Notes: generated from the sequence alone by a model not told the origin. 31,802 nt of DNA from Nocardioidaceae bacterium (GCA_013696365.1 JACCYS010000337.1:1-31802); one strand, 5' to 3'. Positions 1,538-23,517 are shown, counted from the stretch's first letter. Numbers and translations: made by a program.

Positions 1538-1589
1538 AAAGTTGTCACCGGCACACGGTGTTAGCACACCGTACGCCAATGACAACTTT
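1538..1589. terminator. Long imperfect hairpin between convergent genes; probable bidirectional terminator
   Basis: AAAGTTGTCA (1538-47) pairs with TGACAACTTT (1580-89); inner stems GGC/GCC and ACGGTGT/ACACCGT around a TAGC loop. Confidence 0.65.
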
Positions 1590-3363: not shown

Positions 3364-5885
3364 CACTGCTCCCCCTTGATCCGCTCGTTGGTTGGGTCGA
3401 ACGGCGGTGTCGCGTCGGCGGTGGCCACCGTCACCGGGTAGCGCTCCTCCATGTAGCTCACCGCCAGCTGGGTGCCGACGACAGCCTGGTCCGGCGGCAG
3501 GTACGCCATCAGCAGGTGGGTGCCGAGCGACGGCGCCGAGCCGGCCGAGGTGACGTACGGGCGGTGCCCATGCCCGTCGACAAGCGGCTCACCGTCGTGG
3601 GCCAGGATCGGCTCCCCGCCGAGCATGAAGCGTCGCTGACCGCTTGCGGAGGTGTGGTCGTCGACGCTCAGGGTGCACAGCACCGTCGCCGGGTCGGCGG
3701 CGCGCTGCTTGAGGTAGGCCTCCCGGCCGACGAAGTCGGCGTCCTTGACCCGCGGGCGCATCATGCCGGCCTCAGGCACCGTCCGCTCGCTGTCGAGCTC
3801 GGCGCCCATCGCGCGGTAGCCCTTCTCCAGCCGCCCGGTGGTGGCGTAGACACCGATGCCCACCGGCACCGCACCGTGTGGTGCGCCCGCGGACAGCACC
3901 AGGTCCCACAGCCGGGCACCCTGCTCCATCGGCAGGTACAGCTCCCAGCCGAGCTCGCCGACGTAGGAGATGCGCGAGGCAAGCACCGACATGGTGTCGA
4001 TCTCGATGTCACGGCACCGGCCGAAGCCGAAACCGTCGTGGCTGATGTCAGCCGCCGTGATGGACCCCAGGATGTCTCGGGCTCGGGGACCCCACAGTCC
4101 GATCGTGGTGTACGCCGAAGTGAGGTCGACGACCTGCGCGCTGCCATCAGCCGGCATCGCGTCGACGAACGTCTTGCGGTCGACCATGCCGTGCGCGCCG
4201 CCGGTGACGACGCGGTAGTGGTCGTCGCCGAGCCGCATGATCGTCAGGTCGGACCGGAAGCCACCGCGCTGGTCGAGCACCGGGGTGTAGACCACCCGAC
4301 CGGGCGCGACGTCGGTCTGCGCCACCACGGCGTGCTGCACCGCACGGACCGCGGCTGACCCGACCACGTCGAAGATGGCAAATGCCGAGAGGTCGACGAC
4401 GCCGGCACGCTCGCGCATCGCCAGGTGCTCGGCGTTGATGATCGGCGACCACCAGCGCGAGTCCCACTCGTGCTCGCGGGGCAGCACCGCGTCACCGTAG
4501 TCACCCAGCAGCGCCTCGTTGCTGGCGTACCAGAAAGGGCGCTCCCAGCCGACGGCTTCGAAGAACACCGCACCGAGCTGTTGCTGGCTGGCGTGCATCG
4601 GCGCCAACCGCTTGTTGCGGTCGCTGGACCACTGCTCGCCGGGGTGCACGATGCCATAGGTCTTGTTGAACGCCTCGCTGGTGCGCGCCCGCACGTGCGC
4701 CCGGGTCTGCTGGTGGGGGTAGAAACGGGCAATGTCGGAGTGGCTGAGATCCACCTCGGGGGGGCCGTCGGTCATCCACTCCGCGACCAGTCGGCCGACC
4801 CCTGGGCCCTCCTTGACCCAGACGGCTGCGGCCGACCACAGGCCCTTGACCTCCGGCGTCTCGCCAAGGATCGGCGCGCCGTCCGGGGTCAGCGACAGCA
4901 GCCCGTTGATCGCGTAGCGGATCTCGGCCCCGTCCGCACCGAGCGCGTCGGGCATCAGCTCGAACGCCTGCTCCAGCTGCGGGTCGAAGTCGTCGGAGGT
5001 GAACGGCATCTCGGTCGGCGACAGTTTGGCCTGCTCGATCGACGGGATCTCGCCGACGTCGTGCAGGATCGCGCGGTGCGCGTACGAGCCGACCTCCATG
5101 TCCGCCCCGTGCTGACGCTCGTAGCAGAACGTGTCCATGTCCCGCACGATCGGGTACGAGATCTCACCCTCGCGGTCGGCCAGCTGCGGGATCGGCCCGA
5201 CGCTGATCATCTGGTGCACCGCGGGGGTGAGCGGGATGTGCGCCCCCGCCATCTCGGCCAGCGCCGGGCTCCAGACGCCGCAGGCGATGACGACGGTGTC
5301 CGCCTCGATGTCACCACCGCTCGTACGGACGCGGGTGATCCGGCCCCCCTCGACGTCCAAGCCGACGACCTCGACGGTGGCGACGACCTGCAGCGCACCG
5401 AGCTCCAGGGCACGTTCGCGCATGATCGTCCCCGCGCGCAGCGAGTCGACGACCCCGACTGACGGGGTCCAGAAGGCGCCGACGATGACCGACGGGTCGA
5501 GGAACGGCACCTGCTCGACCACCTGTTCGGGGCTGACCAGCTCGGACTGGATGCCCCAGGCCCGCGCCGACGACATCCGGCGGCGCAGCTCCTCCATCCG
5601 CTCCTCGCTGCGGGCCACCTCGAAGCCGCCGGACTGGGTGAACACGCCCATCTCGCGGTACTGCTCGACACTGTCCAGGGTCAGGTCGGTGATCTCGCGG
5701 GAATGGTCCACCGGGAAGATGAAGTTGGATGCGTGCCCGGTGGAGCCACCCGGGTTGGGCAGAGGTCCCTTGTCGATCTGCACGATGTCTCGCCAGCCCA
5801 GCTTGGCCAGGTGATAGACGAGGCTGTTGCCGACGATGCCGGCGCCGATCACCACCACCCGTGCACTGCTCGGAACCGTTGCCAT
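3363..5885 (-). CDS. Dimethylglycine dehydrogenase/oxidase family flavoprotein (DAO FAD domain plus GcvT folate-binding domains), 840 aa
   Basis: VIGAGIVG Rossmann motif; GGSTGHA with His at the position that carries covalent FAD in DMGO; GWERPFWY; ISYVGELGWE and RLEKGY GcvT motifs. Confidence 0.88.
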   Translation of the reverse strand: MATVPSSARVVVIGAGIVGNSLVYHLAKLGWRDIVQIDKGPLPNPGGSTGHASNFIFPVDHSREITDLTLDSVEQYREMGVFTQSGGFEVARSEERMEELRRRMSSARAWGIQSELVSPEQVVEQVPFLDPSVIVGAFWTPSVGVVDSLRAGTIMRERALELGALQVVATVEVVGLDVEGGRITRVRTSGGDIEADTVVIACGVWSPALAEMAGAHIPLTPAVHQMISVGPIPQLADREGEISYPIVRDMDTFCYERQHGADMEVGSYAHRAILHDVGEIPSIEQAKLSPTEMPFTSDDFDPQLEQAFELMPDALGADGAEIRYAINGLLSLTPDGAPILGETPEVKGLWSAAAVWVKEGPGVGRLVAEWMTDGPPEVDLSHSDIARFYPHQQTRAHVRARTSEAFNKTYGIVHPGEQWSSDRNKRLAPMHASQQQLGAVFFEAVGWERPFWYASNEALLGDYGDAVLPREHEWDSRWWSPIINAEHLAMRERAGVVDLSAFAIFDVVGSAAVRAVQHAVVAQTDVAPGRVVYTPVLDQRGGFRSDLTIMRLGDDHYRVVTGGAHGMVDRKTFVDAMPADGSAQVVDLTSAYTTIGLWGPRARDILGSITAADISHDGFGFGRCRDIEIDTMSVLASRISYVGELGWELYLPMEQGARLWDLVLSAGAPHGAVPVGIGVYATTGRLEKGYRAMGAELDSERTVPEAGMMRPRVKDADFVGREAYLKQRAADPATVLCTLSVDDHTSASGQRRFMLGGEPILAHDGEPLVDGHGHRPYVTSAGSAPSLGTHLLMAYLPPDQAVVGTQLAVSYMEERYPVTVATADATPPFDPTNERIKGEQ

Positions 5886-5903: not shown

Positions 5904-5920
5904 GTTGCTCTATATGCAAC
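5904..5920. promoter_or_regulatory. Candidate IclR operator GTTGC-N7-GCAAC
   Basis: gtGTTGCtctatatGCAACac, 19 bp upstream of the dehydrogenase start; same motif upstream of betB. Confidence 0.75.
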
Positions 5921-5945
5921 ACCATGCGTAGTGCGAGACAGCCCA

Positions 5946-5974
5946 AGCATGGCGGTGGCGCCGAACCCCGTCAA
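5946..5974 (-). promoter_or_regulatory. Candidate housekeeping-sigma promoter for the dehydrogenase-etfBA operon
   Basis: Minus strand TTGACG-N17-CATGCT, placing the operator downstream of the predicted start site. Confidence 0.5.
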
Positions 5975-5992
5975 GGGCCGACGCCACCGTCC
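5951..5992 (-). terminator. GC-rich hairpin after the ABC operon
   Basis: Minus strand GACGGTGGCGTCGG...TCGGCGCCACCGCC stem 30 bp after the substrate-binding protein stop; no U-tract. Confidence 0.5.
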
Positions 5993-6022
5993 GCTACATC
6001 GTGCGCATGAATCAGGTCACCG

Positions 6023-7018
6023 TCAGGACGGCATCCAGCCCTCGACCTTGTCCGGGTTGTCCTCGATCCACTGCATTGCCGCATCCTCTGGCGCCATCCC
6101 GTCACTGGAGATCATCGCTGCCACGGCGTTCTGGTCCTCGTTGGTCCACTCGAAGTTCTTGACCACCTCGACCGCTGGGCTGCCCGAATCGGCCCATTCC
6201 GTCGACACGATCTTCTTCAGCTCGGTGACCGGGTAGTCGCAGTCGGCCGCCGAGGCCGGCTCCTGGCAGCCCGGGTCGTACGGCGGTAGGTCGACCTTGA
6301 CCAGCGGGACCTCCGACATGAACCACTGCGGCTCGTAGAAGTAGCCGATCAGCCATTCCTTGTTCTCCTCGGCCTTCTTGAACGCCGCGATCGACGCGGC
6401 CTCGCTGCTGGAGGAGACCACCTTGAAGTTCAGGTCGAGGTTCTTGACGATCGCCTCGTCGAACTGGACGTACGACGGGTCGCTGCCGAGGAACTGGCCC
6501 TGACCGCCGGACTCCGAGGTGGCGAAGTCCTCGGCGTACTGGTTGAGGTTCTCCCAGTCAGTGATGTCGGGGTGCTCCTTGGCCAGCCACGGCGGCACGT
6601 ACCACCCGATCACGCCCTGGTTGCCGTTCGGGCCGAAGTCCTCCGCGCTGCCGTCACCGCTCTTGGCGAAGTACTGCTTCTCCAGGTCGGGGTGTCCCCA
6701 GTCCTCGATCACGACGTCCACGTCGCCGGAGGAGAACCCTGCCCACGACACCTCCTCCTTGAGGTCGCGGTACTCCACCGTGCAGCCGAACTCGCTGGCG
6801 GCGAGCTCACCGACGACGTAGGCGCTGGCCTGGTAGCCGACCCATGGGTTGACCGCCATGTTGACGTCTCCGCACTCGGAGGCCTGGGAGTCGTCACCCC
6901 CGGCCCCAGAATCTGAACCCGATTGCTCGATGTCACCGCCGCCGCACGCCGACAGCACGAGCAACGCGCCCACGGCCGCAGCCGCGAGGGCTGGAGTCCG
7001 CTTTATTGGTCGTTTCAT
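6023..7018 (-). CDS. Glycine betaine/choline ABC transporter substrate-binding lipoprotein (ProX/OpuAC family), 331 aa
   Basis: Lipobox LSAC; NPWVGY, EDWG and GWYVP aromatic residues of ProX-type binders; last gene of the ABC operon. Confidence 0.85.
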   Translation of the reverse strand: MKRPIKRTPALAAAAVGALLVLSACGGGDIEQSGSDSGAGGDDSQASECGDVNMAVNPWVGYQASAYVVGELAASEFGCTVEYRDLKEEVSWAGFSSGDVDVVIEDWGHPDLEKQYFAKSGDGSAEDFGPNGNQGVIGWYVPPWLAKEHPDITDWENLNQYAEDFATSESGGQGQFLGSDPSYVQFDEAIVKNLDLNFKVVSSSSEAASIAAFKKAEENKEWLIGYFYEPQWFMSEVPLVKVDLPPYDPGCQEPASAADCDYPVTELKKIVSTEWADSGSPAVEVVKNFEWTNEDQNAVAAMISSDGMAPEDAAMQWIEDNPDKVEGWMPS

Positions 7019-7091
7019 GGCATCTCCTCTTCCTGGTGTGCCGGTTGTGGTGCTTGGTGGTGGGCTTGGTGGTGCACCGATCGGCTACGCA

Positions 7092-9083
7092 TCAGTGCAC
7101 GCCAGCCCCAGTACGCTCCGCCGCGCGACGGGTGACGCGGTCGAGCATGATGCCGAGGAACACGATCGCCGCTCCCGCCGCGATGCCCTTGCCGAAGAAC
7201 TCGCCCTGCGAGAAGCCGAGCACCGAGTCGTAGCCGAGCGCCCCCGCACCGACCAGGCCGCCGATGACCGTCATGGACAGCACGAACAGCAGGCCCTGGT
7301 TGGCGGCGAGGACCAGACCGCCGCGGGCCATCGGCAGCTGCACCCGGGTGATGACCTGCCACGGGGTGGAGCCAGCGGCGGTCGCCGCCTCCACCGTCGT
7401 CGGCGAGACGCCCTTGATGCCGTCGGCGACCAGCTTGATGGCGACCGGAGCGGCATAGATGACCGCGGCCACGATCGCCGTGAACCGGGTCGGCCCGAAC
7501 AGCAGCAGCGCCGGAATCAGATAGACGAACGGCGGCATCGTCTGGCCGGCGTCCAACACCGGACGGAGCACCGTGTCGACCGACGGTCGACGCGCCATCC
7601 AGACCCCCAGCACGACGGCTAGCACCATCACCAGCAGGGTGGCGACGAGCACCATCGTCAGCGTCACCATGGAGTCGTTCCAGAGGTCGGTGAGATAGAT
7701 GCCGGCCAGGCAGACACCCGCGGTGAGACACCCCCGCACACCGCCGAGCACGAGCGCGAATGCTGCGATCGCTACCGCCGCCAGCCACCACGGAGAGTTG
7801 GCCAGCAGGTCCTGCAGCGGGTTCAGCAGCAGGGCCGTGACCTGGTTCTTCACGCCCGAGGTGACCACGTCGAAGGTCGAGGTGACCCAGTCGGCGCCCG
7901 ACTGGACCGCGGCGGCGACTGACGAGCCGAGGTCGGTGTCGGGGAACTCGGCCGCCCACAGGTAGGTGCGCGACAGGTAGACCAGAACCAGCGCGGCTGC
8001 CCCGCTGACGGCGAGCACGATCCGGTGCCGGCGGACGTCTCGACCGCCGGCGCGGGCGACGGTCTCGGCGCGCACGCTCGCCGCGGTCGTCGTGCGGTCG
8101 AGCATCACCGCCATGATCACGATGCAGAAGCCGGCGACGAAAGCGGTGCCGACCTGCTGGGCCGACAGCGCCCGCAGGACCGGCTGGCCGAGGCCCGGGC
8201 CGTCGACGAAGGCTGCGATGGTGGCCATCGACAGCGCCGCCATCACGGTCTGGTTGATGCCCACGATGATGGTCTTCTTGGCCATCGGCAGCTGCACCTG
8301 CAGCAGCCGCTGCCGGCCCGTCTGCCCGAGCGAGTCGGTGGCCTCGAGCGTGCTGGCCGCGACCGAGCGGATCCCGTGCGCGGCGATCCGCACCACCGGT
8401 GCGAGGGCGTACAGAAACGTCGCGGCGACTGCAGCCGGCAGTCCAATGCCGAAGAACAAGGTGAGCGGCAGCAGGTAGATGAAGGCGGGCACGGTCTGCA
8501 GCACGTCCAGCACCGGCGTGAGCAGCGTCGTCACCGTCTTGCTGGTGGCCATCCACACCGCGAGCGGCAGCCCGATAGCCAGCGCGATCCCGACGGCGAA
8601 GAACGTGACGATCAGGGTGTCCAGGCTGTCCTCCCACAGGCCGAGCAGGCCAAAGGAGAGGAACGAAGCAACGACGAGCAGCGTGATCCGCCAGCCGGCG
8701 ATAGCGTGGCTCAGCCACGCCGCCACCGCGATGACCCCGAGCCAGCCGACCTGTGGCACTGGGCGCGGAAACGCCGGCTGCGCGACCAGCTCCTGCAGCC
8801 ACCCGCCGATGCTCGCGAGCAGGTCGGCCAGCACGCCGGTGACCTGCATCAGCACGTTGCTTTCCCGGCTGTCGATGAGGTCACCCTTGAGCCCGGTGAA
8901 CCAGTCGTGCAGCCCGGTGCGTCCCAGACCGGGCAGCGCCAGAGTGTCGTTGCCGCGCAGGCCCGCCCACGCCGCGATCCACAGCGCCAGCACCGCAACA
9001 CCGAGCAGCCAGCCCGGCGGCCGTCGCAGCAGCGAGCCGATCCCCTCGACACCTGAACCGCCGCGGACGGCTGTGACACTCAT
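7092..9083 (-). CDS. ABC permease with two fused ProW/OpuAB-type modules, 663 aa
   Basis: Duplicated PVLDxxQTxPxFxYLxP and EAA-loop/VQLPMA motifs; ATGA overlap with the ATPase. Confidence 0.9.
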
Positions 9084-10111
9084 GCGAGCACTGCCTCCTC
9101 GGCGACGACCACTCGCAGGATCGTCTCGTCGTCGACAATCCCCACCAGCTCGCCATCGTCGACGACCCGGACGGGATGGTCCGAGGTCAGGGCCGCGTGT
9201 GCGGCCTCGCGGACGATCGTGTCCGGGCCCATCACGAGACCGTCGGAGGAGTCGTCGGGCCGCGGGTCGCGCATCACGTAGCGCAGCGTGAGCACGTGCG
9301 AGCGCGGCACGTCGCTGACGAAGTCGCGGACGTAGTCGTCGGCGGGAGCGGCCACGATTTCGGCGGCGGTGCCGACCTGGACCACCTCGCCGTCACGCAT
9401 GATGAGGATCCGGTCGCCGAGCTTGAGCGCCTCGGCGAGGTCGTGGGTGATGAACACCATCGTCTTGCCGACCTCGTGGTGCAGCCGGATGACCTCGGCC
9501 TGCATGTCCCTGCGGATCAGCGGGTCGAGAGCCGAGAACGGCTCATCGAAGAGCATCACCGTCGGATCCACAGCGAGCGCCCGGGCCAGCCCGACCCGCT
9601 GCTGCATGCCGCCGGACAGTTGGTCGGGGTAGGAGCGTTCGTTGCCTGTCAGCCCGACCAGATCCACCATCTCCTGCGCGCGGGCGTGCCGCTGCTTCTT
9701 CTTCATGCCGCGGATCTCCAGCCCGTACGCGATGTTGTCGAGCACCTGACGGTGCGGCAGCAGGCCGAAATGCTGGAAGACCATCGACACGTGTGTGCGG
9801 CGCAGCTCACGCAACCGGGCATCCGACATCGTGCGCACGTCCTCGCCGTCGAGCAGCACCTCGCCAGCCGTCGGCTCGATCAGCCGCGTCAGGCAGCGCA
9901 CCAGCGTGGACTTGCCGGAGCCGGACAGCCCCATCACGACGAACACCTCCCCCGGGGCCACGTCGAACGACACGTCCTTGACTGCGGCCGTGCAACCAGT
10001 GCGGTCCAGCAGCTCTGCGCGGGGCAGGTCGGCGTCGGGGCTCCCGACGATCTTGTCGGCGCGCGGGCCGAAGACCTTCCACAGCTGGTCGACTGAGAGT
10101 GCAGCAGTCAC
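9080..10111 (-). CDS. Betaine/proline/choline ABC ATP-binding protein (ProV/OpuAA family), 343 aa
   Basis: [36 protein letters not shown]; GTG start overlaps the betA stop. Confidence 0.93.
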
Positions 10112-11820
10112 CGGCGCACGTCCTGTCCGTTTCGGGGGTCACCGGGAGGATACGGCTGACTGCCGTCGCGGTGGCGGTAGAACGGCACATCCGCAGGCGG
10201 CAGGGCGGTGTTGCCGGCGATCAGGTCGGCGGCCTTCTCGGCCAACATCATCACCGGGGCATAGATGTTGCCGTTGGTGATGGCCGGCATCGCCGACGCG
10301 TCGACGACGCTCAGGCAGCGCAATCCGTGCACCCCCATCGTCTCGGGGTCGAGCGCTGCCAGCTCGTCACTTTCGGCGCCCAGGCTGGCGGTGCACGACG
10401 GGTGGTAGGCGGTTTCGGCGTCCCGGGCCACCCAGTCGAGGATCTGTTCGTCGGTCTCGACGTCCGGGCCGGGTGACAGCTCACCTGCGTCGAAGGCCAC
10501 AAAGGCCGGCTGCGACAGGATGTCGCGCGCAACGCGTACGCACTCCACCCACTCCTGACGATCCTTGGGGGTCGACAGGTAGTTGAACTGCAGCGACGGA
10601 TGCTGCCGCGGGTCGGTGGAGCGGATCGTCACCGACCCGCGGACGTCGGAGTACATCGGGCCGATGTGCACCTGATACCCGTGCTTCTCCGCCGGCTGGC
10701 TGCCGTCGTAACGGATGGCGATCGGCAGGAAGTGGAACATCAGATTGGGATAGTCGACGGCGTCATTGGTGCGCACAAACCCGCCGGCCTCGAAGTGGTT
10801 GGTCGCCCCCAGCCCGCTGCGCAGGAACAACCACTCTGCCCCGATCCGCGGACGGTGCCGCCAGCGCAGCCCGGGGGCGATCGACACCGGCAGCTTCGAG
10901 GCATGCTGCACGTAGACCTCGAGATGGTCCTGCAGGTTGGCACCCACACCGGGAAGAGCGGCGACGACGTCGATGTCGAGCCCCCGCAGCAGGTCGGCAG
11001 GCCCGATCCCGGACAACTGCAGCAGCTGGGGGGTGTTGATGGCGCCACCGCTGCAGATGACGTGCCCGGCACGCACCGAGCGGTGCAGCCGGCCGGCCCG
11101 CAGGTAGTCGACACCGACCGCCCGGTCGCCCTCGAACACGATGCGGGTTGCATGCGCCAGGGTCTCGACGGTGAGGTTCTTCCGGTCCCGCACCGGGTGC
11201 AGGTACGCGCGAGCCGCGCTGAGCCGCCGACCGCGGTGGACGTTGCGGTCGAAGCGGGCGAATCCTTCCTGGCGGTAGCCGTTGACGTCGTCGGTCAGCG
11301 GGTGGCCCGCCTGCTGGGCAGCCTCCAGGAAGGCACCGAACAACGGGCCGGACGCGGCGCCGCGCTCCAGCACCAGGGGGCCGCTGCCGCCCCGCCAGGA
11401 GTCGGCACCGGCAAGGCAGGTCTCCATCCGCTTGAAGTACGGCAGGCAGTGGGCGTAGTCCCACCTCGCCATCCCAGCGGCGCTCGCCCACCCCTCGAAG
11501 TCCAGCGGATTGCCGCGCTGGAAGATCATCCCGTTGATGCTGCTTGACCCGCCGAGCAGCTTGCCGCGCCCGTGGAACACCCGTCGCCCACCCATCTGCG
11601 GCTCCGGGTCGGAGTGGTATCGCCAGTCGTAGAAGCGGCTGCCGATGGGGAACGGCAGTGCTGCCGGCATATGGATGAACGGGTCGATCTTGAGGTCGGA
11701 GCGGCCGGCCTCGAGGACCAGCACGGTCGTGCTGCGGTCAGAGCTCAGCCGGTTGGCGAGCACGCAGCCGGCCGACCCGCCACCGACGATCACGTAGTCG
11801 TAGGTCTTGTCAGTGCTCAT
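10108..11820 (-). CDS. betA: Choline dehydrogenase (GMC oxidoreductase), 570 aa
   Basis: Starts [18 protein letters not shown] (ATG at 11820); [38 protein letters not shown]. Confidence 0.92.
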
Positions 11821-11827
11821 CGCAAAT

Positions 11828-13309
11828 TCATTTCCGGCCACCGAACCAACCTTGCGGCTGTGGGGCAATGTGCTGCCAGATGTGCTTGGTCTCGCGATAC
11901 TCCTCAAGCCCGGCCAGGCCCAGCTCGCGTCCGGTGCCGGACTGCTTGTACCCGCCCCACTCGGCGTGCGGGACGTACGGGTGGTAGTCGTTGATCCATA
12001 CCGTGCCCATCCGCAGCCGGGCGGCCACCCGCTGGCCGCGACCGGAGTCGGCTGTCCATACCGCACCGGCCAGCCCGTAGCGGCTGTCGTTCGCGAGCCG
12101 GACCGCGTCGTCCTCGTCGGTGAACGTCTCGACGGTCAGGATCGGTCCGAACGATTCCTCCTGTACTACCCGCATCGCGCTGGCACAGCCGTCCAGGACG
12201 GTGGGCAGGTAGTAATAGCCGTCGGCCAGCTGCGGGTCGTCCGGCGTCGACCCGCCACAGCGCAGCACCGCCCCCTCGGCGAGGCCGTCTGCGACGTAGG
12301 CGGCGATCTTGTCGCGGTGCGCCGCCGAGATCAGCGGACCGGTCTCGGCCTGTTCGTCGAACGGCCCACCGAGCCGAATCGCTTCGGCACGAGCGACCAG
12401 TTCGTCGACGAACTCGTCATGGATCGACTCGGCGATGACCAGCCGAGCGCCAGCTGAGCAGACCTGGCCAGAATGCAGGAACACCGCCGTCAGGGCCATG
12501 TCCAGGGCCGTCTCGCGGTCTGCATCAGCGAACACGATGTTGGGATTCTTGCCGCCAAGCTCGAGGGCGACCTTCTTCACGGTGGCCGCGGCAGCTGCCA
12601 TAACCGACCGGCCAGTGACCACGCCGCCGGTGAACGACACCAGATCGACATCGTGGTGCTCGGACAGCGGCGCCCCGGCCTCCGGCCCGGCCCCCAGGAC
12701 GAGGTTTGCCACGCCGTCGGGCAGCCCGGCTTCGACAAGCAACCGCATCAGCCAGATCGCCGAGGACGGCGTCAGCTCGCTCGGTTTGAGCACGAAGGTA
12801 TTGCCCGCCGCCAGGCAGGGCGCCACTTTCCACGACGTCTGCAGTAACGGGTAGTTCCAGGGGGTGATCAGGCCACAGACTCCGACCGGCTCACGGACCA
12901 CCCGGCTGACGACGTCTGGCTGGCCGGTGTCGATGACCCGGCCCGCGTCCGCACCGGAGACGGTCAGACCGGCGTAATGCCGGAACACCGCGGCCACGTC
13001 GTCGACGTCGTACTCGCTCTCGACCAGGCGCTTGCCGGTGTCCAGTGACTCCGCCCGAGCCACGTCGTCCTTGTGTTCAAGCAACAGGTCAGCAACCCGC
13101 CAGAGCACCGCCCCGCGTTCCGGGGCAGGCGTCTGCGGCCAGGCACCATTGTCAAATGTGGCCCGGGCGGCGTGGATCGCCGCTTCGGCATCGGTCCGTC
13201 CCGCCTCGTCGACGGTGGCGACCAGGCGCCCGTCGGCGGGGCAGCGGATCGGGCGCGTGGCGCCGGACTGGGCGCCCATCCACTGTCCGCCGATCAGCAG
13301 GTCCGCCAT
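11828..13309 (-). CDS. betB: Betaine aldehyde dehydrogenase, 493 aa
   Basis: ALDH motifs PWNYP, KPSE, FTGG, LELGGK, GQVCSAG, EESFGP; directly upstream of betA. Confidence 0.88.
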
Positions 13310-13350
13310 ATGCCTCCGCCCACAAGGATCGCATCATCCGTGCGTCTAGC

Positions 13351-13386
13351 GTTGCGCATTACGCAACGAATAATAGTATACGCAAC
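13351..13386. promoter_or_regulatory. betB promoter region: operator GTTGC-N7-GCAAC plus half site and -10
   Basis: GTTGCgcattacGCAAC at 13351-67; second GCAAC half site ending 13386; minus-strand TATACT at 13375-80. Confidence 0.75.
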
Positions 13387-13404
13387 AGCATGCTGGTGGG
13401 TCAT

Positions 13405-14214
13405 CTAGCCGTCAAGCGCCCGGTCGAGGGGTGGACGCCACCCTAGTCGGCGCGACACCTCACCCGCGGTCTCACGGGTGGCAGTGATCGCGGACCCCAG
13501 CCGCTCGCCCGTCAACCGAAACGTCGGCCCAGACACGCTGATCGAGGCCACGACATCCCCATGCGCGTTGCGTACCGCTGCGGCGACCGCGGTGAGACCG
13601 ACCTCGAGCTCGTCCACCGCCACCGCATACCCGGTGGCTCGCACCTCGGCCAGCTGGGCGGTCAGCACCGCCAGGCTGGCGACGGTGTTGTCGGTGAAGG
13701 TGCGCGGTCGGCGACCGACCACCTGGGCCGCGTCCGCGTCCGGCATCGCCGACAGCAATACCTTGCCGTTTGAGGTGGCGTGCAAGGGGATGCGCTGGCC
13801 GACCCAGTTGTGTGGTTGCAGTGCCGACGAACCGGCGACTTGATCCACATACAACGCGGCATCGTCGGACAAAACGGTGAGGTTCACCGTCTCTCCGGTC
13901 TGCACGGCCAGCGCACGGCACAACCCCCGCGACTCCTGCACCAGGTCCAACCGCGCGGTGGTGGCCGCAGCCAGACGAATCAGCCCGACGCCAAGCCGGT
14001 ACTTGCCGCGCTCGGCGTGCTGCTCGACCAGCCCACGTCGCTCGAGTGCGGAGACAAGGCGAAACGCCGTTGACTTGTGCACGCCCAGCTCGCCGGCGAT
14101 CTCAGTGACACCGCACTCGCCGGCGTGCGCGAGGATCTCCAGCACACTGACCGCACGGTCGACCGACTGCACTGTTGATGCGCCAGCCGACTGCCCCGCC
14201 CCACTGTTGCTCAT
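13405..14214 (-). CDS. IclR family transcriptional regulator (IclR-1), 269 aa
   Basis: VQSVDRAVSVLE, HKSTAFRL HTH, GQRIPLHATSNGK, DELEVGLTAVAA, ISVSGP. Confidence 0.93.
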   Translation of the reverse strand: MSNSGAGQSAGASTVQSVDRAVSVLEILAHAGECGVTEIAGELGVHKSTAFRLVSALERRGLVEQHAERGKYRLGVGLIRLAAATTARLDLVQESRGLCRALAVQTGETVNLTVLSDDAALYVDQVAGSSALQPHNWVGQRIPLHATSNGKVLLSAMPDADAAQVVGRRPRTFTDNTVASLAVLTAQLAEVRATGYAVAVDELEVGLTAVAAAVRNAHGDVVASISVSGPTFRLTGERLGSAITATRETAGEVSRRLGWRPPLDRALDG

Positions 14215-14225
14215 GGAGGAACACT

Positions 14226-14226
<1 letters not shown>
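14206..14226. promoter_or_regulatory. Hybrid operator GTTGC-N7-GGAAC overlapping the IclR-1 start codon, purU SD and a candidate leaderless -10
   Basis: tGTTGCtcatggaGGAACac at 14205-24; GGAGG at 14215-19; minus-strand TAGTGT at 14221-26, 6 nt before the IclR-1 ATG. Confidence 0.6.
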
Positions 14227-15801
<1,575 letters not shown>

Positions 15802-15907
15802 TGTCCGGACAGCCGAACGTGCCGCGCGCAGCCGGCGGGGGTTCCGAAATCGCCCTCGGGGGCACACACTTGTTGGATTGACATAGTCGGCGGCGAGGAG
15901 TTACCCC

Positions 15908-16606
15908 ATGCCTGCAACACCCCATGGCCTACCCGAGCTGGTGCCGGTGCTCGCTCGCGGCAAGCATCGCAACCCACGCAAGGGTGCCTGCTTCATGGAG
16001 CTCGCCTCATACCTCGCCGGTGAACGCTGGAGCGACCGCCCAAGCTGCACCCATCCGCTGCTGTCCGAGGTGGCGCGGCTGGTGAACGATTTGACCAGTG
16101 ATGCCGGCCGGCCCCGGCTGGCCGGGCTCATTCCAGCGGTGATCGGCGTGACGACCGATGACGTGCGGATGGACGCCGAGATCGCGCTGCGTTGCGCACA
16201 ATCGGCGCTGCCGGTTGTTGCCGAGGACCGTCAACGGGTGCTGGCCGTCTCAGTACTGAGTGGCGAACGGGTACTGGCCACCCTCGAGGGTCGCCCCATC
16301 GACGAGTTGTCGGACGTCAGCCGAGCTGCTTTGGGGAGTGTGCCGTTGGCCGCTGATCGCGCTCGCACGCTGCTGGGCGACGTTGGCGTCGCGGTGCGCG
16401 GCTACCGCAAGCACGCAGCGCCGGCAACTGTCCGCTGCGCAGTGCGCGGCCTCGCCGAGGCGTGTGTGCCCGACCCCGACCAGCTGATGCTTCGACTGCT
16501 GGACGATGTGATCGTCGCGTGCGAGCCGTGGCGGACGACGGCAAACAACCCACGGGTGGCGCCCGAGATGTGGGTGGACGCCTGCCAACTGACCGGCGGC
16601 AACTGA
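15908..16606 (+). CDS. Hypothetical protein, 232 aa
   Basis: GAGGAG SD before ATG; protein-like composition; N-terminal RGKHRNPRKGACFMELASYLAGERWSDRPSCTHP that I recall from uncharacterised actinobacterial proteins (not searched). Confidence 0.75.
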   Translation: MPATPHGLPELVPVLARGKHRNPRKGACFMELASYLAGERWSDRPSCTHPLLSEVARLVNDLTSDAGRPRLAGLIPAVIGVTTDDVRMDAEIALRCAQSALPVVAEDRQRVLAVSVLSGERVLATLEGRPIDELSDVSRAALGSVPLAADRARTLLGDVGVAVRGYRKHAAPATVRCAVRGLAEACVPDPDQLMLRLLDDVIVACEPWRTTANNPRVAPEMWVDACQLTGGN

Positions 16607-16617
16607 GCCCCCGAGAG

Positions 16618-18057
16618 TCAGTCCCCGAGCTCGCGCCGACGGCGGGTGACGAAGTCCTCGAGCTCGGCGCGGATCCCCTCGTCCAGTGCCGGCTGCTCGT
16701 AGGACTCCAACCGCTGCTGCCAGATGTTCTCGGCGCGGGCGGCCGTATCCAACGCCCCGTTCTTTACCCAACGCTCGTAGTTGTCCGAGCTTGACAGCAG
16801 CGGGCGGTAGAAGCAGGTGCGGAAGCGCTCCATCGTGTGCATGGCGCCGAGAAAGTGCCCGCCGTGCCCCACCTCCTCGTGAGCTCCGAACGCGAGCGAG
16901 TCATCGTCGATCTCGAGCGGGGTGAACTCGGCCTGCAACATCTGCAGCAGCTCGACATCGACGATGAACTTCTCGAAGCCGGCGACCAGCCCGCCCTCCA
17001 GCCAGCCCGCCGAGTGCATCACCCAGTTGGCGCCGGCGAGAAAGGCCGGCAGCATCGACATCAAAGCCTCATAACCGGCCTGCGCGTCTGGGACCTGACT
17101 TGAGGTGAGTGCCCCGCCGGAGCGAAAAGGCAGGCCGAAGTGGCGGGCGATCTGGCCGGTGCACAGCAGGCCGATGCCGGACTCGGGGGTACCGAAGGTC
17201 GGCGACCCCGACTGCATATTGATCGTGGACAGGAACGAACCGAACACCACCGGTGCACCGGGCCGGATGAGCTGGGCCAGCGCGATACCGCTGAGCGCCT
17301 CGGCGATCTGCTGCACCAGGGCCGCCGGAATCGTCACCGGGGACATCGCCCCCATCAACAGGAACGGTGTGAGCACCACCGGTTGAGCGGCGCCGACGTA
17401 CTCGAAGAGCGCGTCCAGCATCCGGTCGTCCCAGCGCAACGGGGAATTGCAGTTGATCAACGAGATGGTCACCGGTGTGGCTTCGATGGCGGCTCGGCCG
17501 CCGAAGCAGATGTCACACATCGCCAGTACGTCGCGGGCGTTCAAACCGCTCACCACGTTGCCCATGAAAAGCTTGTCGGTGAGCGTCATCAGCGCGTACG
17601 TCATGTCGAGATGTCGAGAGTCGAGCGGAGCGTCGTTGGGCTCACAGACGACGCCGCCGGCTGAGTCCAACGCGTCGAAGGATTGCGCGAGCCGGGCGAA
17701 GTTGCGGTAGTCGTCCATGGTGGCGTCCCGGCGCACCTGCCCCTGGCGGACGAACGGGGGGCCGTACACCGCGCCGAAGGCCATCGCGTCGCCCCCGATG
17801 CGCACGGAGTGGTCGGGGTTGCGGGCGGCGATGTCGAACTCGGCCGGCGCCTTGGCCACCTGTGCGAGGACGAACTCGGGATCGAGGAAGACCGTGTTGT
17901 CGACCACCCGCTGGCCGGCGGCCCGGAACATCTCCAGCGCCGGCTCGGACATGAACTCGACGCCGATCTCGGTGACGATGCGGCGCCAGCCGGCGTCGAG
18001 CTTGTCCATCGCGTCGGCGGACAGGATTTCGTATCGCGGCATCTTGTTGTGGAACAC
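16618..18057 (-). CDS. MttB-superfamily (trimethylamine methyltransferase-like) non-pyrrolysine corrinoid methyltransferase, MtgB-like, 479 aa
   Basis: GTG start with AAGGGAGG SD; INCNSPL, PVTIPAAL, SGSPTFGTPE, VPDAQAGYEA, LAGANWVMHSAGWLEGG, GPGG-like GHGGHFLG. Confidence 0.88.
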   Translation of the reverse strand: MFHNKMPRYEILSADAMDKLDAGWRRIVTEIGVEFMSEPALEMFRAAGQRVVDNTVFLDPEFVLAQVAKAPAEFDIAARNPDHSVRIGGDAMAFGAVYGPPFVRQGQVRRDATMDDYRNFARLAQSFDALDSAGGVVCEPNDAPLDSRHLDMTYALMTLTDKLFMGNVVSGLNARDVLAMCDICFGGRAAIEATPVTISLINCNSPLRWDDRMLDALFEYVGAAQPVVLTPFLLMGAMSPVTIPAALVQQIAEALSGIALAQLIRPGAPVVFGSFLSTINMQSGSPTFGTPESGIGLLCTGQIARHFGLPFRSGGALTSSQVPDAQAGYEALMSMLPAFLAGANWVMHSAGWLEGGLVAGFEKFIVDVELLQMLQAEFTPLEIDDDSLAFGAHEEVGHGGHFLGAMHTMERFRTCFYRPLLSSSDNYERWVKNGALDTAARAENIWQQRLESYEQPALDEGIRAELEDFVTRRRRELGD

Positions 18058-18068
18058 GTGTGCCTCCC

Positions 18069-18097
18069 TTGACCTACGAACGGTGGCATTCTAGCCT
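18069..18097 (+). promoter_or_regulatory. Candidate promoter for the IclR-2/corrinoid operon
   Basis: TTGACC-N17-TAGCCT; a divergent -10 TAGAAT (18088-93, minus strand) overlaps it. Confidence 0.55.
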
Positions 18098-18114
18098 CAT
18101 AATGTGGGAACATG

Positions 18115-18131
18115 GTTCCATCAGATGGAAC
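18115..18131. promoter_or_regulatory. Candidate IclR operator GTTCC-N7-GGAAC
   Basis: GTTCCAtcagaTGGAAC palindrome in the divergent MT1/IclR-2 spacer; extra GGAAC half site at 18107-11. Confidence 0.75.
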
Positions 18132-18170: not shown

Positions 18171-18932
18171 TTGAGCAGTACCGGCACCCAGGCGATCGAC
18201 CGGGCGGCTGACTTGCTGCGCCTGGTGGTGCACGCCGACGAGCCGATCAGCTTCACTGATCTGGCCGACGAGAGCGGGCTTGCGCGGTCGACGACGTCTC
18301 GGCTGTTGGCTGCACTGGAGCGCCATCAACTGCTCGAACGCGATGCCGGCGGCTATTTCGTAGCGGGTCCGCTGTTCGCCCTCTACGCCGCCCGGCATGA
18401 TCCGTGGGCCCAGGTGGCCCGGTTGGCCACCCCGACACTGGAGCGCATCGGGGACAAGGTGGGCGAGACGGTCACGCTCGCCATTCCGCGCGGCGACCAG
18501 GTCGTGCAAATCGCACAGGTGGACTCGACCTTCCTGCTTGGCACCGGCGACTGGCTGGGCGTCGAGGTACCGCCGCACTGCTCGGCAGCCGGCAAGGTGC
18601 TCTTGGCCTTCGGCTGCATCGACACGCCGGAGGCTGACCTGCCTCGACTGACCGATCATTCCGTCACCACGCTGGACGACCTCGAACGCCAACTTCGAGC
18701 CATCCGCCGCACCGGATATGCCATCGCCAGCGAGGAGCTCGAGGTCGGACTGGACGCCGTCGCGGCACCCGTGCTCGGGCGCGACGGAGCCGTGGTTGCA
18801 GCCGTCAGCGTCTCCGGTCCCACCAGCCGCATGTCCGATCAGATCGATCATGTCGGTCACATGTTGGTCGACCAGGCGCAGCAGATATCCGACCTGCTGC
18901 GTCGCCGTACCCCGAAAGAAGGCGCAGCATGA
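18171..18932 (+). CDS. IclR family transcriptional regulator (IclR-2), 253 aa
   Basis: TQAIDRAADLL, ARSTTSRLL HTH, PPHCSAAGK, EELEVGLDAVAAP, VSVSGP; TTG start; ATGA overlap with the next gene. Confidence 0.92.
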   Translation: MSSTGTQAIDRAADLLRLVVHADEPISFTDLADESGLARSTTSRLLAALERHQLLERDAGGYFVAGPLFALYAARHDPWAQVARLATPTLERIGDKVGETVTLAIPRGDQVVQIAQVDSTFLLGTGDWLGVEVPPHCSAAGKVLLAFGCIDTPEADLPRLTDHSVTTLDDLERQLRAIRRTGYAIASEELEVGLDAVAAPVLGRDGAVVAAVSVSGPTSRMSDQIDHVGHMLVDQAQQISDLLRRRTPKEGAA

Positions 18933-19594
18933 AACCTGACGAGATCCTGCAAGGCCTCTACGACCTCACCCTGGTGGGCAACGCCCCCGAGGTGCTGGAA
19001 CTGACTAATGCCGGCCTGGCAGCCGGGATGGGGCCGGAGACCATGTTGTTCGACGCGCTCATCCCCTCGCTGGAGGAGGTGGGTGCGCGCTTCGAACGCG
19101 GAGACTTTTTCGTGCCCGAGATGCTGATCGCCGGCCGCGCGATGAGCGGTGCGATGGAGGTGCTGCGTCCGCTGCTTGCCGAGACCGGCGCGCAACAGGT
19201 CGGCACATTCCTGATGGGGACAGTCAAGGGCGACGTCCATGACATCGGCAAGAACCTCGTGAACATCATGCTCGAGGGCGCTGGCTTCAATGTCATCGAC
19301 CTCGGGGTGCAGGTTGCGCCGGAGAAGTTCGTGGAGGCCATCAATGAGCACAAGCCGGACGTAGTCGGCTTCTCGGCGTTCCTCACCACCACCATGCCGA
19401 TGTTCAAAGCCAACCTGAATGCCCTGCAGAAGGCCGGCATCCGCGACAACGTGATCGTGATGGTCGGCGGAGCCCCCGTCACCCAGGAGTACGCCACCGC
19501 TGTCGGTGCCGATGGCTACGCCGCCGACGCATCCTCGTGCGTCAAGAAGGCCAAGGCGCTGATCGCCGAGCGCCGAGCCGCCGTCACCGCCTGA
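18929..19594 (+). CDS. Stand-alone corrinoid (B12-binding) protein, MtgC/MttC-like, 221 aa
   Basis: Cap domain (ERFERGDFFVPEML) plus base-off/His-on motif DVHDIGKN, SAFLTTT and VGGAP. Confidence 0.93.
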   Translation: MKPDEILQGLYDLTLVGNAPEVLELTNAGLAAGMGPETMLFDALIPSLEEVGARFERGDFFVPEMLIAGRAMSGAMEVLRPLLAETGAQQVGTFLMGTVKGDVHDIGKNLVNIMLEGAGFNVIDLGVQVAPEKFVEAINEHKPDVVGFSAFLTTTMPMFKANLNALQKAGIRDNVIVMVGGAPVTQEYATAVGADGYAADASSCVKKAKALIAERRAAVTA

Positions 19595-19619
19595 CCCCCC
19601 GATAGATCAAGGAACCCCG

Positions 19620-20507
19620 ATGACCCTGCGCCACACCGTCCTCCGCTCAGCGACCAAAGAGGTCGTATTAGGCCATGACCGCCCTTTCACGGTGATCGGC
19701 GAGCGAATCAACCCGACGGGACGCAAGAAGTTTCAGGAACAGTTGCGCTCCGGCGACCTGTCCGCGATCGACACCGACGTGGCCGCGCAGGTGGCTGGTG
19801 GCGCCGACGTACTCGACGTGAACATGGGTGTGCCGCTGACCGACGAGCCGGAGCTCCTGCGCCAAGCCATCGTGCGCGTGCAGGAGTTGACCGACTTGCC
19901 TGTCTGCATCGACTCGTCCGTGGTCGAGGCGTTGGAGGTCGGCTTGGCGACCTACCAAGGTCGCGCTCTCGTCAACTCCGTCACCGCCGAGGATGACCGG
20001 CTGGCTGCCATCTTGCCGCTGGTGAAGCGGTACGACGCGGCGATCATCGCGCTGCCCAACGATGAAGACGAGATCCCGATGGAGGCCGACAAGCGCCTCG
20101 AGCTGACCCGCAAGATCGTCCGGGTCGCCACCGAGGAGTACGGCCTCGCGATCGAGGACATCGTCATTGACCCGCTCGCCATGCCCATCGGGGCGGACAC
20201 CAGCGTGGTCGCGACCACGCTGGACACGATCAGCCGGATCCTGGCCGAGTTCGGGCTGAACATGACCCTGGGTGCCTCCAACGTCTCCTTTGGTATGCCC
20301 GGTCGGCACACGATCGGGGCAGCGTTCTTGCCGATGGCGATGGTTGCCGGCCTGACCAGCGCCATCATGGATGCCCGCAGCCCGCAGATCGTCGAGTCCG
20401 TCAAGGCCGCTGACCTGCTGCTCGGGCATGACGAGTGGGGTGGCGCCTGGATCGCTGCGCACCGCGCGCGGCAGGCCGCTGAGCGGGCGGCGGCGCCCGT
20501 CGCGTGA
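19620..20507 (+). CDS. Methylcorrinoid:tetrahydrofolate methyltransferase (pterin-binding domain; MtgA/AcsE-like), 295 aa
   Basis: VIGERINPTGRK, LDVNMG, CIDSS, LVNSV, IDPL, GASNVSFG, as in the MetH folate domain. Confidence 0.9.
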   Translation: MTLRHTVLRSATKEVVLGHDRPFTVIGERINPTGRKKFQEQLRSGDLSAIDTDVAAQVAGGADVLDVNMGVPLTDEPELLRQAIVRVQELTDLPVCIDSSVVEALEVGLATYQGRALVNSVTAEDDRLAAILPLVKRYDAAIIALPNDEDEIPMEADKRLELTRKIVRVATEEYGLAIEDIVIDPLAMPIGADTSVVATTLDTISRILAEFGLNMTLGASNVSFGMPGRHTIGAAFLPMAMVAGLTSAIMDARSPQIVESVKAADLLLGHDEWGGAWIAAHRARQAAERAAAPVA

Positions 20508-23395: not shown

Positions 23396-23517
23396 GGGGC
23401 TCTACTCGTTTCTACTACTGCGCCTGCTGTGTCGAGCGAGCGTACGGTCCCGACGACCCTCCCGACAAGACTTCGTGCAACACAGACTGCGTGGCGAAAA
23501 ACAGTCAGCCAGCGAGG

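Follow-up and report, generated by a model that had tools for sequence, protein, structure and literature searches.

Two IclR-family regulators in a choline and glycine betaine breakdown island of a Nocardioidaceae bacterium and their similar but distinguishable candidate operators

We analyzed a 31,802-nucleotide stretch of DNA (the window; GCA_013696365.1, JACCYS010000337.1:1-31802) from the metagenome-assembled genome of a soil/marine actinobacterium of the family Nocardioidaceae. The window carries a gene island for choline and glycine betaine breakdown with two related IclR-type regulators, and its main genes are as follows.

1589..5885, minus strand: DMGDH and electron-transfer flavoprotein (ETF) genes (Pfam, synteny)
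6023..13309, minus strand: operon of betB, betA (GMC oxidoreductase), ABC ATPase, permease and OpuAC binding protein (Pfam)
13405..14214, minus strand: iclR-1, 269 aa, IclR family, recognition helix V-H-K-S-T-A-F-R-L (Pfam HTH_IclR and IclR_C)
16618..18057, minus strand: mttB-family methyltransferase, non-pyrrolysine, MtgB-like (Pfam MTTB, 622 bits)
18171..18932, plus strand: iclR-2, 253 aa, IclR family, recognition helix L-A-R-S-T-T-S-R-L (Pfam, BLASTP)
18929..22525, plus strand: corrinoid protein, pterin-binding methyltransferase and RACo activase (Pfam, synteny)

Both regulators are full IclR family members. The HTH_IclR (PF09339) and IclR_C (PF01614) domains scored 61.5 and 151.5 bits in IclR-1 and 56.0 and 119.4 bits in IclR-2, all above the curated cut-offs, and the two proteins are 39% identical (BLASTP). 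Orthologues of iclR-1 were found in 29 of 36 same-family genomes at 64-83% identity, with an invariant VHKSTAFRL helix, and DMGDH was absent in all five tested of the seven same-family genomes without an IclR-1 orthologue. Orthologues of iclR-2 were found in 26 of the 36 genomes, always with iclR-1 within a few kb. The genes of the betB-betA-OpuAC operon are contiguous or overlapping, and their synteny is kept in relatives. The corrinoid, pterin-methyltransferase and RACo genes overlap in their stop and start codons and appear to be co-transcribed with iclR-2.

A sequence-only reading of this DNA had reported GTTGC-N7-GCAAC palindromes at 5904 and 13351, each with a degenerate second site 19 bp further upstream (5923 and 13370), and a GTTCC-N7-GGAAC palindrome at 18115 with a half site 20 bp away. 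These elements are real and far above chance. All three palindromes were recovered as exact matches; GTTGC-N7-GCAAC occurred twice in the window against 0.02 expected (0/100 shuffles), and GTTCC-N7-GGAAC once against 0.04 expected (4/100 shuffles). The second sites are conserved at both the betB and DMGDH promoters. At these promoters, the candidate IclR-1 elements are arranged as follows.

13351..13367, palindromic: IclR-1 proximal operator of the betB promoter, GTTGCGCATTACGCAAC (gene strand GTTGCGTAATGCGCAAC); exact GTTGC-N7-GCAAC match
13370..13386, minus strand: IclR-1 distal operator of the betB promoter, gene strand GTTGCGTATACTATTAT; conserved GTTGCG half
13387..13415, minus strand: putative betB promoter, -35 TTGACG (13410-13415), 17-nt spacer, -10 CATGCT (13387-13392); from conservation
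5904..5920, palindromic: IclR-1 proximal operator of the DMGDH promoter, GTTGCTCTATATGCAAC; exact match
5923..5939, minus strand: IclR-1 distal operator of the DMGDH promoter, gene strand GTCTCGCACTACGCATG; conserved element
5946..5974, minus strand: putative DMGDH promoter, -35 TTGACG (5969-5974), 17-nt spacer, -10 CATGCT (5946-5951); from conservation

At betB, the proximal site would lie at about +19 to +35 relative to the predicted transcription start, and the GTTGCG half of the distal site (13381-13386), 19 bp ahead of the proximal site, touches the -10 box. Of 26 orthologous betB loci, 20 have GTTGCG at this distance (20 bp in 6 loci), and 4 further loci have GTTTCG or GTTCCG in its place. 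Almost every locus has TTGAC at -48 to -52 from the palindrome, and ATGCT is conserved too. A promoter scan offered another betB promoter, ATGACC-18-TATACT, within the distal site. At DMGDH, the proximal site lies 18 bp upstream of the ATG at 5885. In nine other genomes, IclR-1-type sites were found 23-42 bp upstream of DMGDH, and all of these aligned promoters share a GTYYCG-N5-CGC element 19 bp before the palindrome as well as CTTGAC...ATGCT.

A fourth site, absent from the earlier list, covers the start of iclR-1.

14206..14222, no strand: putative IclR-1 auto-operator, GTTGCTCATGGAGGAAC (gene strand GTTCCTCCATGAGCAAC); match with one mismatch

Besides spanning the start codon of iclR-1, it overlaps purU at its Shine-Dalgarno sequence and its start (14226). 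Because the -10 box TAGTGT (14221-14226) is only 6 nt before the iclR-1 ATG, the mRNA is probably leaderless. The form GTT(C/T/G)C-N2-CATGAGCAAC is kept in about 20 of 30 orthologues, and published orthologues in the available part of the PMC8222616 supplement share a start-codon-spanning site, for example SCAB_6901 at -10.

The candidate IclR-2 site, located between the divergent mttB and iclR-2 genes, has a different architecture with three boxes.

18103..18131, no strand: IclR-2 operator, box a TGTGGGAAC, box b GTTCCA (18115-18120), box c TGGAAC (18126-18131); exact b-c palindrome
18069..18097, plus strand: putative promoter of the iclR-2 operon, -35 TTGACC (18069-18074), 17-nt spacer, -10 TAGCCT (18092-18097); conserved in close relatives
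18088..18093, minus strand: candidate -10 TAGAAT of the divergent mttB promoter; TANNAT in relatives

The b-c palindrome GTTCCATCAGATGGAAC (18115-18131) is the GTTCC-N7-GGAAC motif, and the half site noticed 20 bp away is the GGAAC of box a (18107-18111), with a spacing of 19-20 bp across loci. The operator is conserved in the mttB/iclR-2 divergent region of relatives. In about 21 loci, box a persists as TCAT-N-ATGTGGRA, 3-4 bp ahead of GTTCCA, and more distant families retain the a-b pair only (group-2 pair, TGGAACAACAGTTCCA). The deepest-conserved pair is GGAAC-N3/4-GTTCC and not only the N7 palindrome. GTTCCA-N5-TGGAAC is a single genomic copy in most of the 11 relatives bearing it beside iclR-2. 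The operator starts about 6 nt past the predicted -10 box of the iclR-2 operon, and the -35 region of mttB would coincide with boxes a and b.

Phylogenetic footprinting, proposed earlier as a check, found both motifs conserved at orthologous loci well above shuffles. GTTGC-N7-GCAAC was found downstream of iclR-1 exactly in 17 of 30 loci and with at most one mismatch in 26 (shuffle means, 0.005 and 0.4), and GTTCC-N7-GGAAC upstream of iclR-2 exactly in 11 of 27 loci and with at most one mismatch in 15 (shuffle means, 0.0 and 0.2); the relatives used are kin, so these locus counts exaggerate independence. Half-sites were constant and spacers variable among orthologous sites. Neither motif occurred exactly in the regions of the other regulator (0 in 30 plus 27 loci). 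The bare GTTGC-N7-GCAAC word was not enriched genome-wide (5 copies versus 4 for the reversed control), and the significance of the IclR-1 motif therefore comes from its position, extended consensus and conservation.

The proposed division of labor, with IclR-1 controlling the oxidative and uptake operons and IclR-2 the corrinoid module, agrees with the finding that each motif occurs only in promoter regions flanking its own regulator. IclR-1-type sites precede the betB-betA-opuA and DMGDH(-ETF) operons, which are predicted IclR-1 targets, and IclR-2-type sites occupy the mttB/iclR-2-corrinoid region, where mttB and the corrinoid-methyltransferase-RACo genes are predicted IclR-2 targets. The IclR-1 assignment is further supported by published regulators with the same helix, for which the same motif was predicted. 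The idea that the regulon can be read directly from sequence was borne out only in part: metF within the window had no recognizable site, fhs was an extra candidate target and the IclR-2 operator had three boxes. The fhs site is an additional IclR-1-type tandem on another contig of the same genome, and it was also found in three relatives (G001, G004 and G024). The IclR-1 regulon would also cover iclR-1 itself and fhs.

In Proteobacteria, choline and betaine catabolism is regulated by BetI (TetR family) and GbdR (AraC family), which serve the same physiological pathway but belong to unrelated protein families with unrelated operators. We compared both motifs with published IclR sites. The group-1 "GTT-11-AAC" consensus of the IclR family is the 17-bp palindrome GTTYCRYW3RYGRAAC, with tandem sites 18-22 bp apart in 94 orthologous groups and three-box sites in 32 (Suvorova & Gelfand 2021, PMC8222616). 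Both motifs can be assigned to this class by sequence: GTTCCAT-N3-ATGGAAC of IclR-2 matches the consensus everywhere, whereas the IclR-1 motif has G instead of Y at position 4 and otherwise fits. The tandem spacings of IclR-1 (19 bp, or 20 bp in 6 loci) and IclR-2 (19-20 bp) fall within the published centre-to-centre range. The IclR-2 boxes GGAAC-N3-GTTCC-N7-GGAAC alternate in direction, as in the 32 three-box groups (group-1 plus group-2 pairs), an architecture not seen for IclR-1. The helix LARSTTSRL had no match in the available part of the supplement, and the IclR-2/mttB operator appears to be new.

In the part of Supplementary Table 1 of PMC8222616 that was available, an actinobacterial group (Gobs_2890, SAV_6954, SCAB_6901, Sros_3853, MMAR_4423, Svir_30950, Arth_3712 and others) has an HTH almost identical to that of IclR-1 (VQSVDRA..LEILA..GVTE.A.ELGVHKSTAFRL...GKYRLG). 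The segment ELGVHKSTAFRL, the motif TGTTGCGCA-T-TGCGCAACA and the 19-bp tandem are identical, and this group likewise has start-codon-spanning own sites and c or t at half-site position 4. IclR-1 therefore shares with this regulog its DNA-binding domain sequence and predicted motif. The published group is a computational prediction in other genera, with no Nocardioidaceae member seen in that part of the table, whereas the targets here are betB/betA/opuA, DMGDH, fhs and iclR-1. GenR of Corynebacterium glutamicum, as described in the accessible part of PMC8222616, recognizes ATTCC-N7(5)-GGAAT and shares the 5-bp inverted repeats, 7-bp gap and TTCC/GGAA core, but it has an A/T outer base, acts in gentisate catabolism as activator and repressor and is not an orthologue. 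PcaU and PobR (Acinetobacter) and TtgV (Pseudomonas putida, PDB 2XRO) require a palindrome plus an extra half-site or direct repeat for binding, and one tetramer touches two sites on the same DNA face (PMC8222616); these proteins differ in being proteobacterial with other half-site sequences, and PcaU and PobR are activators.

Both motifs coincide with conserved -35/-10 boxes or follow them directly, so the most likely role of these sites is that of operators at which IclR tetramers repress transcription. We consider it probable that the island carries two IclR-family repressors, each acting on promoters adjoining its own gene and each binding, probably as a tetramer (dimer of dimers), two 17-bp sites about two helical turns apart. 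The operator pairs would overlap the -10 box and the transcription start and extend into the beginning of the transcript. IclR-1 (VHKSTAFRL) would recognize GTTGCR-N5-YGCAAC and a weaker site 19 bp upstream. Its targets would be the betB-betA-opuA and DMGDH-ETF operons, iclR-1 itself through a leaderless promoter and, at another place in the genome, fhs, with metF and purU as additional targets in relatives. IclR-2 (LARSTTSRL) would be a single-locus regulator recognizing the three-box TGGRAC-N3/4-GTTCCAT-N3-ATGGAAC between mttB and the divergent iclR-2-corrinoid-MT2-RACo operon. Discrimination would rely jointly on positions 4 and 6-7, namely G4/R6 for IclR-1 and C4/A6/T7 for IclR-2, with position 4 not sufficient alone. 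Judging from genomic context, betaine, DMG or choline-type ligands on the IclR_C domains are plausible effectors.

The sequence-only reading had instead proposed a strict one-base-pair code, in which half-site position 4 (G or C) alone picks the regulator. Position 4 is indeed the cleanest strong-site difference and the sole core position that differs between the two regulators in every strong site: 46 of 52 proximal IclR-1 half-sites have G there, and 27 of the 38 IclR-2 b/c half-sites listed have C (GTTCCA), the remainder being mostly loose matches. GTTGCA half-sites are present in IclR-1 operators, and a published correlation pairs the motif position mapped here to 4 with HTH position 27, which is His in IclR-1 and Ala in IclR-2 (PMC8222616). 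However, the distal and auto-operator half-sites of IclR-1 are mostly GTTTCG, GTTCCN or GTCTCG, and the published orthologue set, in the available part of the supplement, includes a perfect GTTCC-N7-GGAAC (GTTCCGCATTACGGAAC, upstream of MMAR_4420) and many hybrid sites. Positions 6 (G/A in IclR-1 sites, invariant A in IclR-2 sites) and 7 (T/C versus mostly T) also distinguish the two. The strict code is therefore unlikely, and the one-letter difference would be only part of the operator difference. Cross-talk, with IclR-1 or a third paralogue occupying the mttB/iclR-2 operator or with IclR-2 occupying the GGAAC half at 14206, would couple the two modules hierarchically instead of insulating them. 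On the IclR-1 matrix, the IclR-2 site reaches 14.5, near the 15.2 of the auto-operator, so cross-binding may occur; the 14206 site has one GGAAC half in this genus, and the third paralogue, on contig C374, has the helix THKSTVFRL, almost identical to that of IclR-1. However, the GGAAC form is confined to this genus and falls on the Shine-Dalgarno sequence of purU, the upstream half being GTTTCG, GTCTCG or GTTGCG in other genera, and the 14206 site scores just 6.2 on the IclR-2 matrix. Contig C374 has no IclR-1-like site, and the mutual absence of exact sites described above also argues against cross-talk, which we regard as quite unlikely.

One or both regulators could instead be activators or dual regulators, like GenR or PobR/PcaU, especially IclR-2 at mttB. 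The mttB boxes probably overlap a weak -35 region, and GenR and like IclR members both activate and repress, according to the accessible part of PMC8222616. In contrast, the sites at betB, DMGDH, iclR-1 and iclR-2 begin at or just past the conserved -10 box and over the predicted transcription start, the classical position of a repressor, which makes activation unlikely. For mttB, the location of the boxes near a poor -35 also fits activation. The inverted repeats might also be RNA or DNA hairpins (an iclR-1 terminator, attenuator or riboswitch stem), since they are perfect over 5-6 bp within 5' leaders and 38 bp separate the iclR-1 stop codon from the 13351 site downstream of it. This explanation is very improbable: no U-tract follows the repeats, no Rfam family matched and folding energies were ordinary (z of -0.1 to -1.4). 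In addition, all nine one-mismatch proximal sites were altered in a single arm without compensation, indicating that arm sequence and not pairing is conserved, and half-sites 19 bp away repeat the same word without forming a palindrome. A more speculative reading, of low probability, is an insulated pair whose operators are 1-2 transversions apart per half-site and which was rewired in Nocardioidaceae, with the iclR-1/purU site binding both regulators in a hierarchical cascade that would place a choline or DMG signal above a betaine signal. The metF site, the basis of the rewiring, is IclR-1-type in some genera, IclR-2-type in others and absent here.

Under the two-repressor model, the pair is a clean but ordinary case of a known bacterial switch, and it leaves knowledge of how IclR regulators work unchanged. 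MtgB-type enzymology was recently reported in marine Proteobacteria, with no regulator named there (PMC12478193). The sites described here provide a regulatory map, open to testing, of an actinobacterial island for aerobic, cobalamin-dependent (MtgB-type) glycine betaine demethylation. IclR-1 and IclR-2 also form a natural system for asking how near-identical operators escape cross-talk, with His/Ala, Lys/Arg and Phe/Ser in the recognition helix as candidate protein determinants and half-site positions 4, 6 and 7 as candidate DNA determinants.

A motif search of the window returned every palindrome and second site at the coordinates that the sequence-only reading had reported. GTTGC-N7-GCAAC occurred at 5904 and 13351 (2 observed versus 0.02 expected), with second sites at 5923 and 13370, and GTTCC-N7-GGAAC occurred once, at 18115 (0.04 expected). 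A fourth site with one mismatch to the first motif, GTTGCTCATGGAGGAAC (14206-14222), overlaps the start codon of iclR-1. The window is one contig of a MAG of 2.63 Mb in 381 contigs, and genome-wide the bare GTTGC-N7-GCAAC pattern was not enriched (5 copies versus 4 of the reversed control); the remaining 3 genomic copies had G+C-rich spacers. The genes around the sites were assigned by Pfam profile matches as follows.

Gene content of the window (Pfam)
minus strand: ETF genes
3363-5885, minus strand: DMG dehydrogenase (DMGDH)
6023-7018, minus strand: OpuAC
minus strand: permease, ABC ATPase and GMC oxidoreductase (betA)
11828-13309, minus strand: aldehyde dehydrogenase betB
13405-14214, minus strand: iclR-1
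ATG at 14226, plus strand: purU
16618-18057, minus strand: mttB-family methyltransferase
18171-18932, plus strand: iclR-2
plus strand, after iclR-2: corrinoid protein, pterin methyltransferase and RACo activase
22544-23395, minus strand: MTHFR/metF

The two regulators are 39% identical. The 400-aa plus-strand ORF at 22619-23821 is an antisense shadow of the minus-strand MTHFR/metF homologue, which is the real gene. The 550-aa "ETF" ORF (1589-3241, minus strand) is probably over-extended; a candidate for etfB is the 258-aa minus-strand ORF at 2590-3366, which overlaps the stop codon of DMGDH, and etfA would then start near 2620. Between purU and mttB, two overlapping plus-strand ORFs (15023-15801) match the alpha-amylase catalytic domain at profile positions 1-54 and 46-169, and together they suggest a glycosidase gene that is frameshifted or truncated.

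The sequence-only reading had proposed phylogenetic footprinting of the motifs in orthologous clusters, and this analysis bore out both of them. Of 36 genomes from the same family, 29 have IclR-1 orthologues (64-83% identity); betB comes after most of these orthologues, and DMGDH comes directly after in some genera. Of 30 regions 3' of iclR-1, 17 contained an exact GTTGC-N7-GCAAC and 26 contained it with at most one mismatch, compared with 0.005 and 0.4, respectively, in dinucleotide shuffles. These relatives are phylogenetically non-independent, and the orthologue and footprint counts include the unpublished genome G006 (loci L022 and L060), on which no claim hinges. The tblastn markers "PurU" and "unk22619" were off-frame or antisense and were used solely for locating orthologous DNA, so that their identities are meaningless. 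The arms of the palindrome are fixed and the spacers vary freely among loci, giving the extended consensus GTTGCR-N5-YGCAAC. In 20 of 26 loci, a GTTGCG half-site precedes the palindrome by 19 bp (by 20 bp in six loci); 4 further loci have GTTTCG or GTTCCG instead. A TTGAC box is located 48 to 52 bp 5' of the palindrome and ATGCT directly 5' of the distal half-site; these positions would place the distal site over the transcription start and the proximal site over about +19 to +35. DMGDH promoters of ten genomes share the layout CTTGAC-N17/18-ATGCT...GTYYCG-N5-CGC..-N2-GTTGCR-N5-YGCAAC, which validates the second site at 5923 that had been called degenerate. The start-codon site of iclR-1 is kept as GTT(C/T/G)C-N2-CATGAGCAAC; a TANNNT box stands 6 nt 5' of the ATG, and this arrangement points to a leaderless, autoregulated iclR-1.

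IclR-2 orthologues (50-89% identity) were present in 26 of the 36 genomes, never more than a few kilobases from iclR-1. In the mttB/iclR-2 divergent region, 11 of 27 loci had GTTCC-N7-GGAAC exactly and 15 had it within one mismatch, compared with 0.0 and 0.2 in shuffled regions. The consensus is GTTCCAT-N3-ATGGAAC, and the exact 12-base form GTTCCA-N5-TGGAAC, which adjoins iclR-2 in 11 relatives, is the sole genomic copy in most relatives having it. The conservation extends 5' of the palindrome, as TCAT-N-ATGTGGRA(C), and the boxes, named a, b and c, alternate in direction as GGAAC-N3/4-GTTCC-N7-GGAAC. In a subclade whose regulator helix reads LAKSTASRL, box c has decayed to GTGGTTTC and boxes a and b are kept. 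Two other actinobacterial families carry IclR-2-like genes (42-45% identity) with the mttB/iclR-corrinoid synteny kept, and their operator, TGGAACAACAGTTCCA, has only boxes a and b. The conserved box a and these distant operators argue that the palindrome of the sequence-only reading makes up half of a larger three-box operator that is evolving. At L139:1415-1470 and L142:2250-2310, two loci from another actinobacterial family (42-44% identity), TGGAACAACAGTTCCA stands right after a TTGAC-N18-TAATAT promoter, in the group-2 (a-b box) arrangement only.

A conserved TTGACC-17-TAGCCT element is oriented towards iclR-2 and stops 6 nt short of box a; we infer that it is the iclR-2 promoter, and a conserved TANNAT on the opposite strand is a candidate -10 box of mttB. 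At 18088-18097, the candidate -10 boxes TAGCCT (plus strand, iclR-2) and TAGAAT (minus strand, mttB) overlap back to back, and both are kept as TANNNT in relatives. At mttB, activation instead of repression may occur. What we say of the function of both regulators is inferred from sequence.

The inverted repeats could also be read as RNA hairpins or terminators. This reading was rejected because there was no Rfam match, the folding was unremarkable and no U-tract was present; it is also opposed by the nine single-mismatch proximal sites, all nine of which are altered in one arm without compensation. A third IclR paralogue, at C374:3594-4337 (minus strand) on another contig of the same genome, shares 47% identity with IclR-1 and is divergent from a Rieske-type ferredoxin gene; its recognition helix, THKSTVFRL, is almost that of IclR-1. 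It was rejected as the explanation of the IclR-1-type sites, as no site with an IclR-1 matrix score of at least 8 was found on its contig, which is short (5.3 kb).

The sequence-only reading had set the specificity of the two regulators by one base pair, at position 4 of the half-site. Position 4 is indeed the cleanest difference among strong sites: the proximal IclR-1 half-sites are most often GTTGCG (30) or GTTGCA (10), and boxes b and c of IclR-2 are GTTCCA in 27 of the 38 listed, the rest being mostly loose matches; GTTGCA and GTTCCA differ there alone. However, C or T stands at this position in the weaker IclR-1 half-sites; the distal ones include GTTTCG and GTTCCG, and the upstream half of the auto-operator is most often GTTTCG (7), GTTCCN (6), GTCTCG (3) or GTTGCG (2). 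Positions 6 and 7 differ as well, with an invariant A and mostly T in IclR-2 sites versus G more often than A and T or C in IclR-1 sites. On the IclR-1 matrix, the IclR-2 site of the window scored 14.5, near the 15.2 of the IclR-1 auto-operator, and cross-binding between the two operators may thus occur. On this evidence, our reading is that positions 4 and 6-7 act in combination in operator discrimination; a code of one base pair is too simple. Each group has an invariant recognition segment, V-H-K-S-T-A-F-R-L in IclR-1 versus L-A-(R/K)-S-T-(T/A/V)-S-R-L in IclR-2, and the two differ at HTH positions 27, 28, 31 and 32 (numbering of PMC8222616, Table 5; TtgV P46-R52). The same study reports that His27 correlates with G/C as the base pair at position 10/22 of the motif, which would correspond to half-site position 4 through the group-1/group-2 correspondence of that study.

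The published group-1 consensus of IclR sites is GKTYCRYW3-4RYGRAMC, with a GTT-11-AAC subgroup; 94 orthologous groups were described as having tandem sites 18 to 22 bp apart, and 32 as having three-box sites (Suvorova & Gelfand 2021, PMC8222616). Among the entries seen in its Supplementary Table 1, an actinobacterial group with an HTH nearly identical to that of IclR-1 (e.g., Gobs_2890, SAV_6954, SCAB_6901 and Sros_3853) has, like IclR-1, sites of the form TGTTGCGCA-T-TGCGCAACA, 19-bp tandems and sites that extend across the start codon of the regulator itself. At position 4, many of the group's half-sites have c or t, as in GTTCCGCATTACGGAAC, which lies upstream of MMAR_4420. Since the HTH is nearly identical and the motif and tandems are shared, the IclR-1 motif and architecture had, on these entries, already been predicted computationally. 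The IclR-2 helix had no match among the entries seen in this supplement, and no regulator is named in the recently published account of aerobic betaine demethylation by MtgBCD/MetF2. The IclR-2/mttB operator appears to be new.

The best additional IclR-1-type match in the genome was a tandem, GTTGCGCATCACGCAAT-CC-GTTGCG, on contig C18 (C18:7726-7750; L092:3727-3751; pattern GTTGCG-N13-GTTGCG), approximately 75 bp 5' of a formate-THF ligase (fhs) and an FTCD_C (cyclodeaminase-like) gene. Counts of GTTGCG-N13-GTTGCR in 40 relatives were similar to the control, and the pattern became informative only once filtered by the neighbouring gene, which led to fhs; in G001, G004 and G024, too, fhs has this tandem upstream. 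The fhs gene of this MAG looks frameshifted, with its N terminus from L092:3826 and the main ORF at 4073-5536. Upstream of metF in the window (23396-23520), no site scored at least 5 on either matrix. Among relatives, metF is preceded by an IclR-1-type site in G004, G005, G022 and G023 and by an IclR-2-type site in G025 and G031, which suggests turnover of its operator between IclR-1 and IclR-2.

No exact IclR-2-type site was found in the regions downstream of iclR-1, and no IclR-1-type site with up to one mismatch in those upstream of iclR-2. Scans with both matrices covered 21 islands, each at most 20 kb long: the window and 20 fetched loci. IclR-1-type sites fell at betB, DMGDH and the iclR-1 start, in some genera also at metF or on the purU side; IclR-2-type sites fell at mttB/iclR-2 only, or at metF where iclR-2 does not adjoin mttB. 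Five genomes of the family without IclR-1 were tested, and DMGDH was absent from all of them, so that none could serve as a negative control having DMGDH without IclR-1, and these five show co-occurrence only. Coordinates and conservation relative to shuffles confirmed the two palindrome classes. Their segregation is consistent with control of the oxidative and uptake module by IclR-1 and of the corrinoid module by IclR-2, as the sequence-only reading had proposed, and assigning one operator class to each IclR regulator, and to one of the two pathway modules, is well supported.
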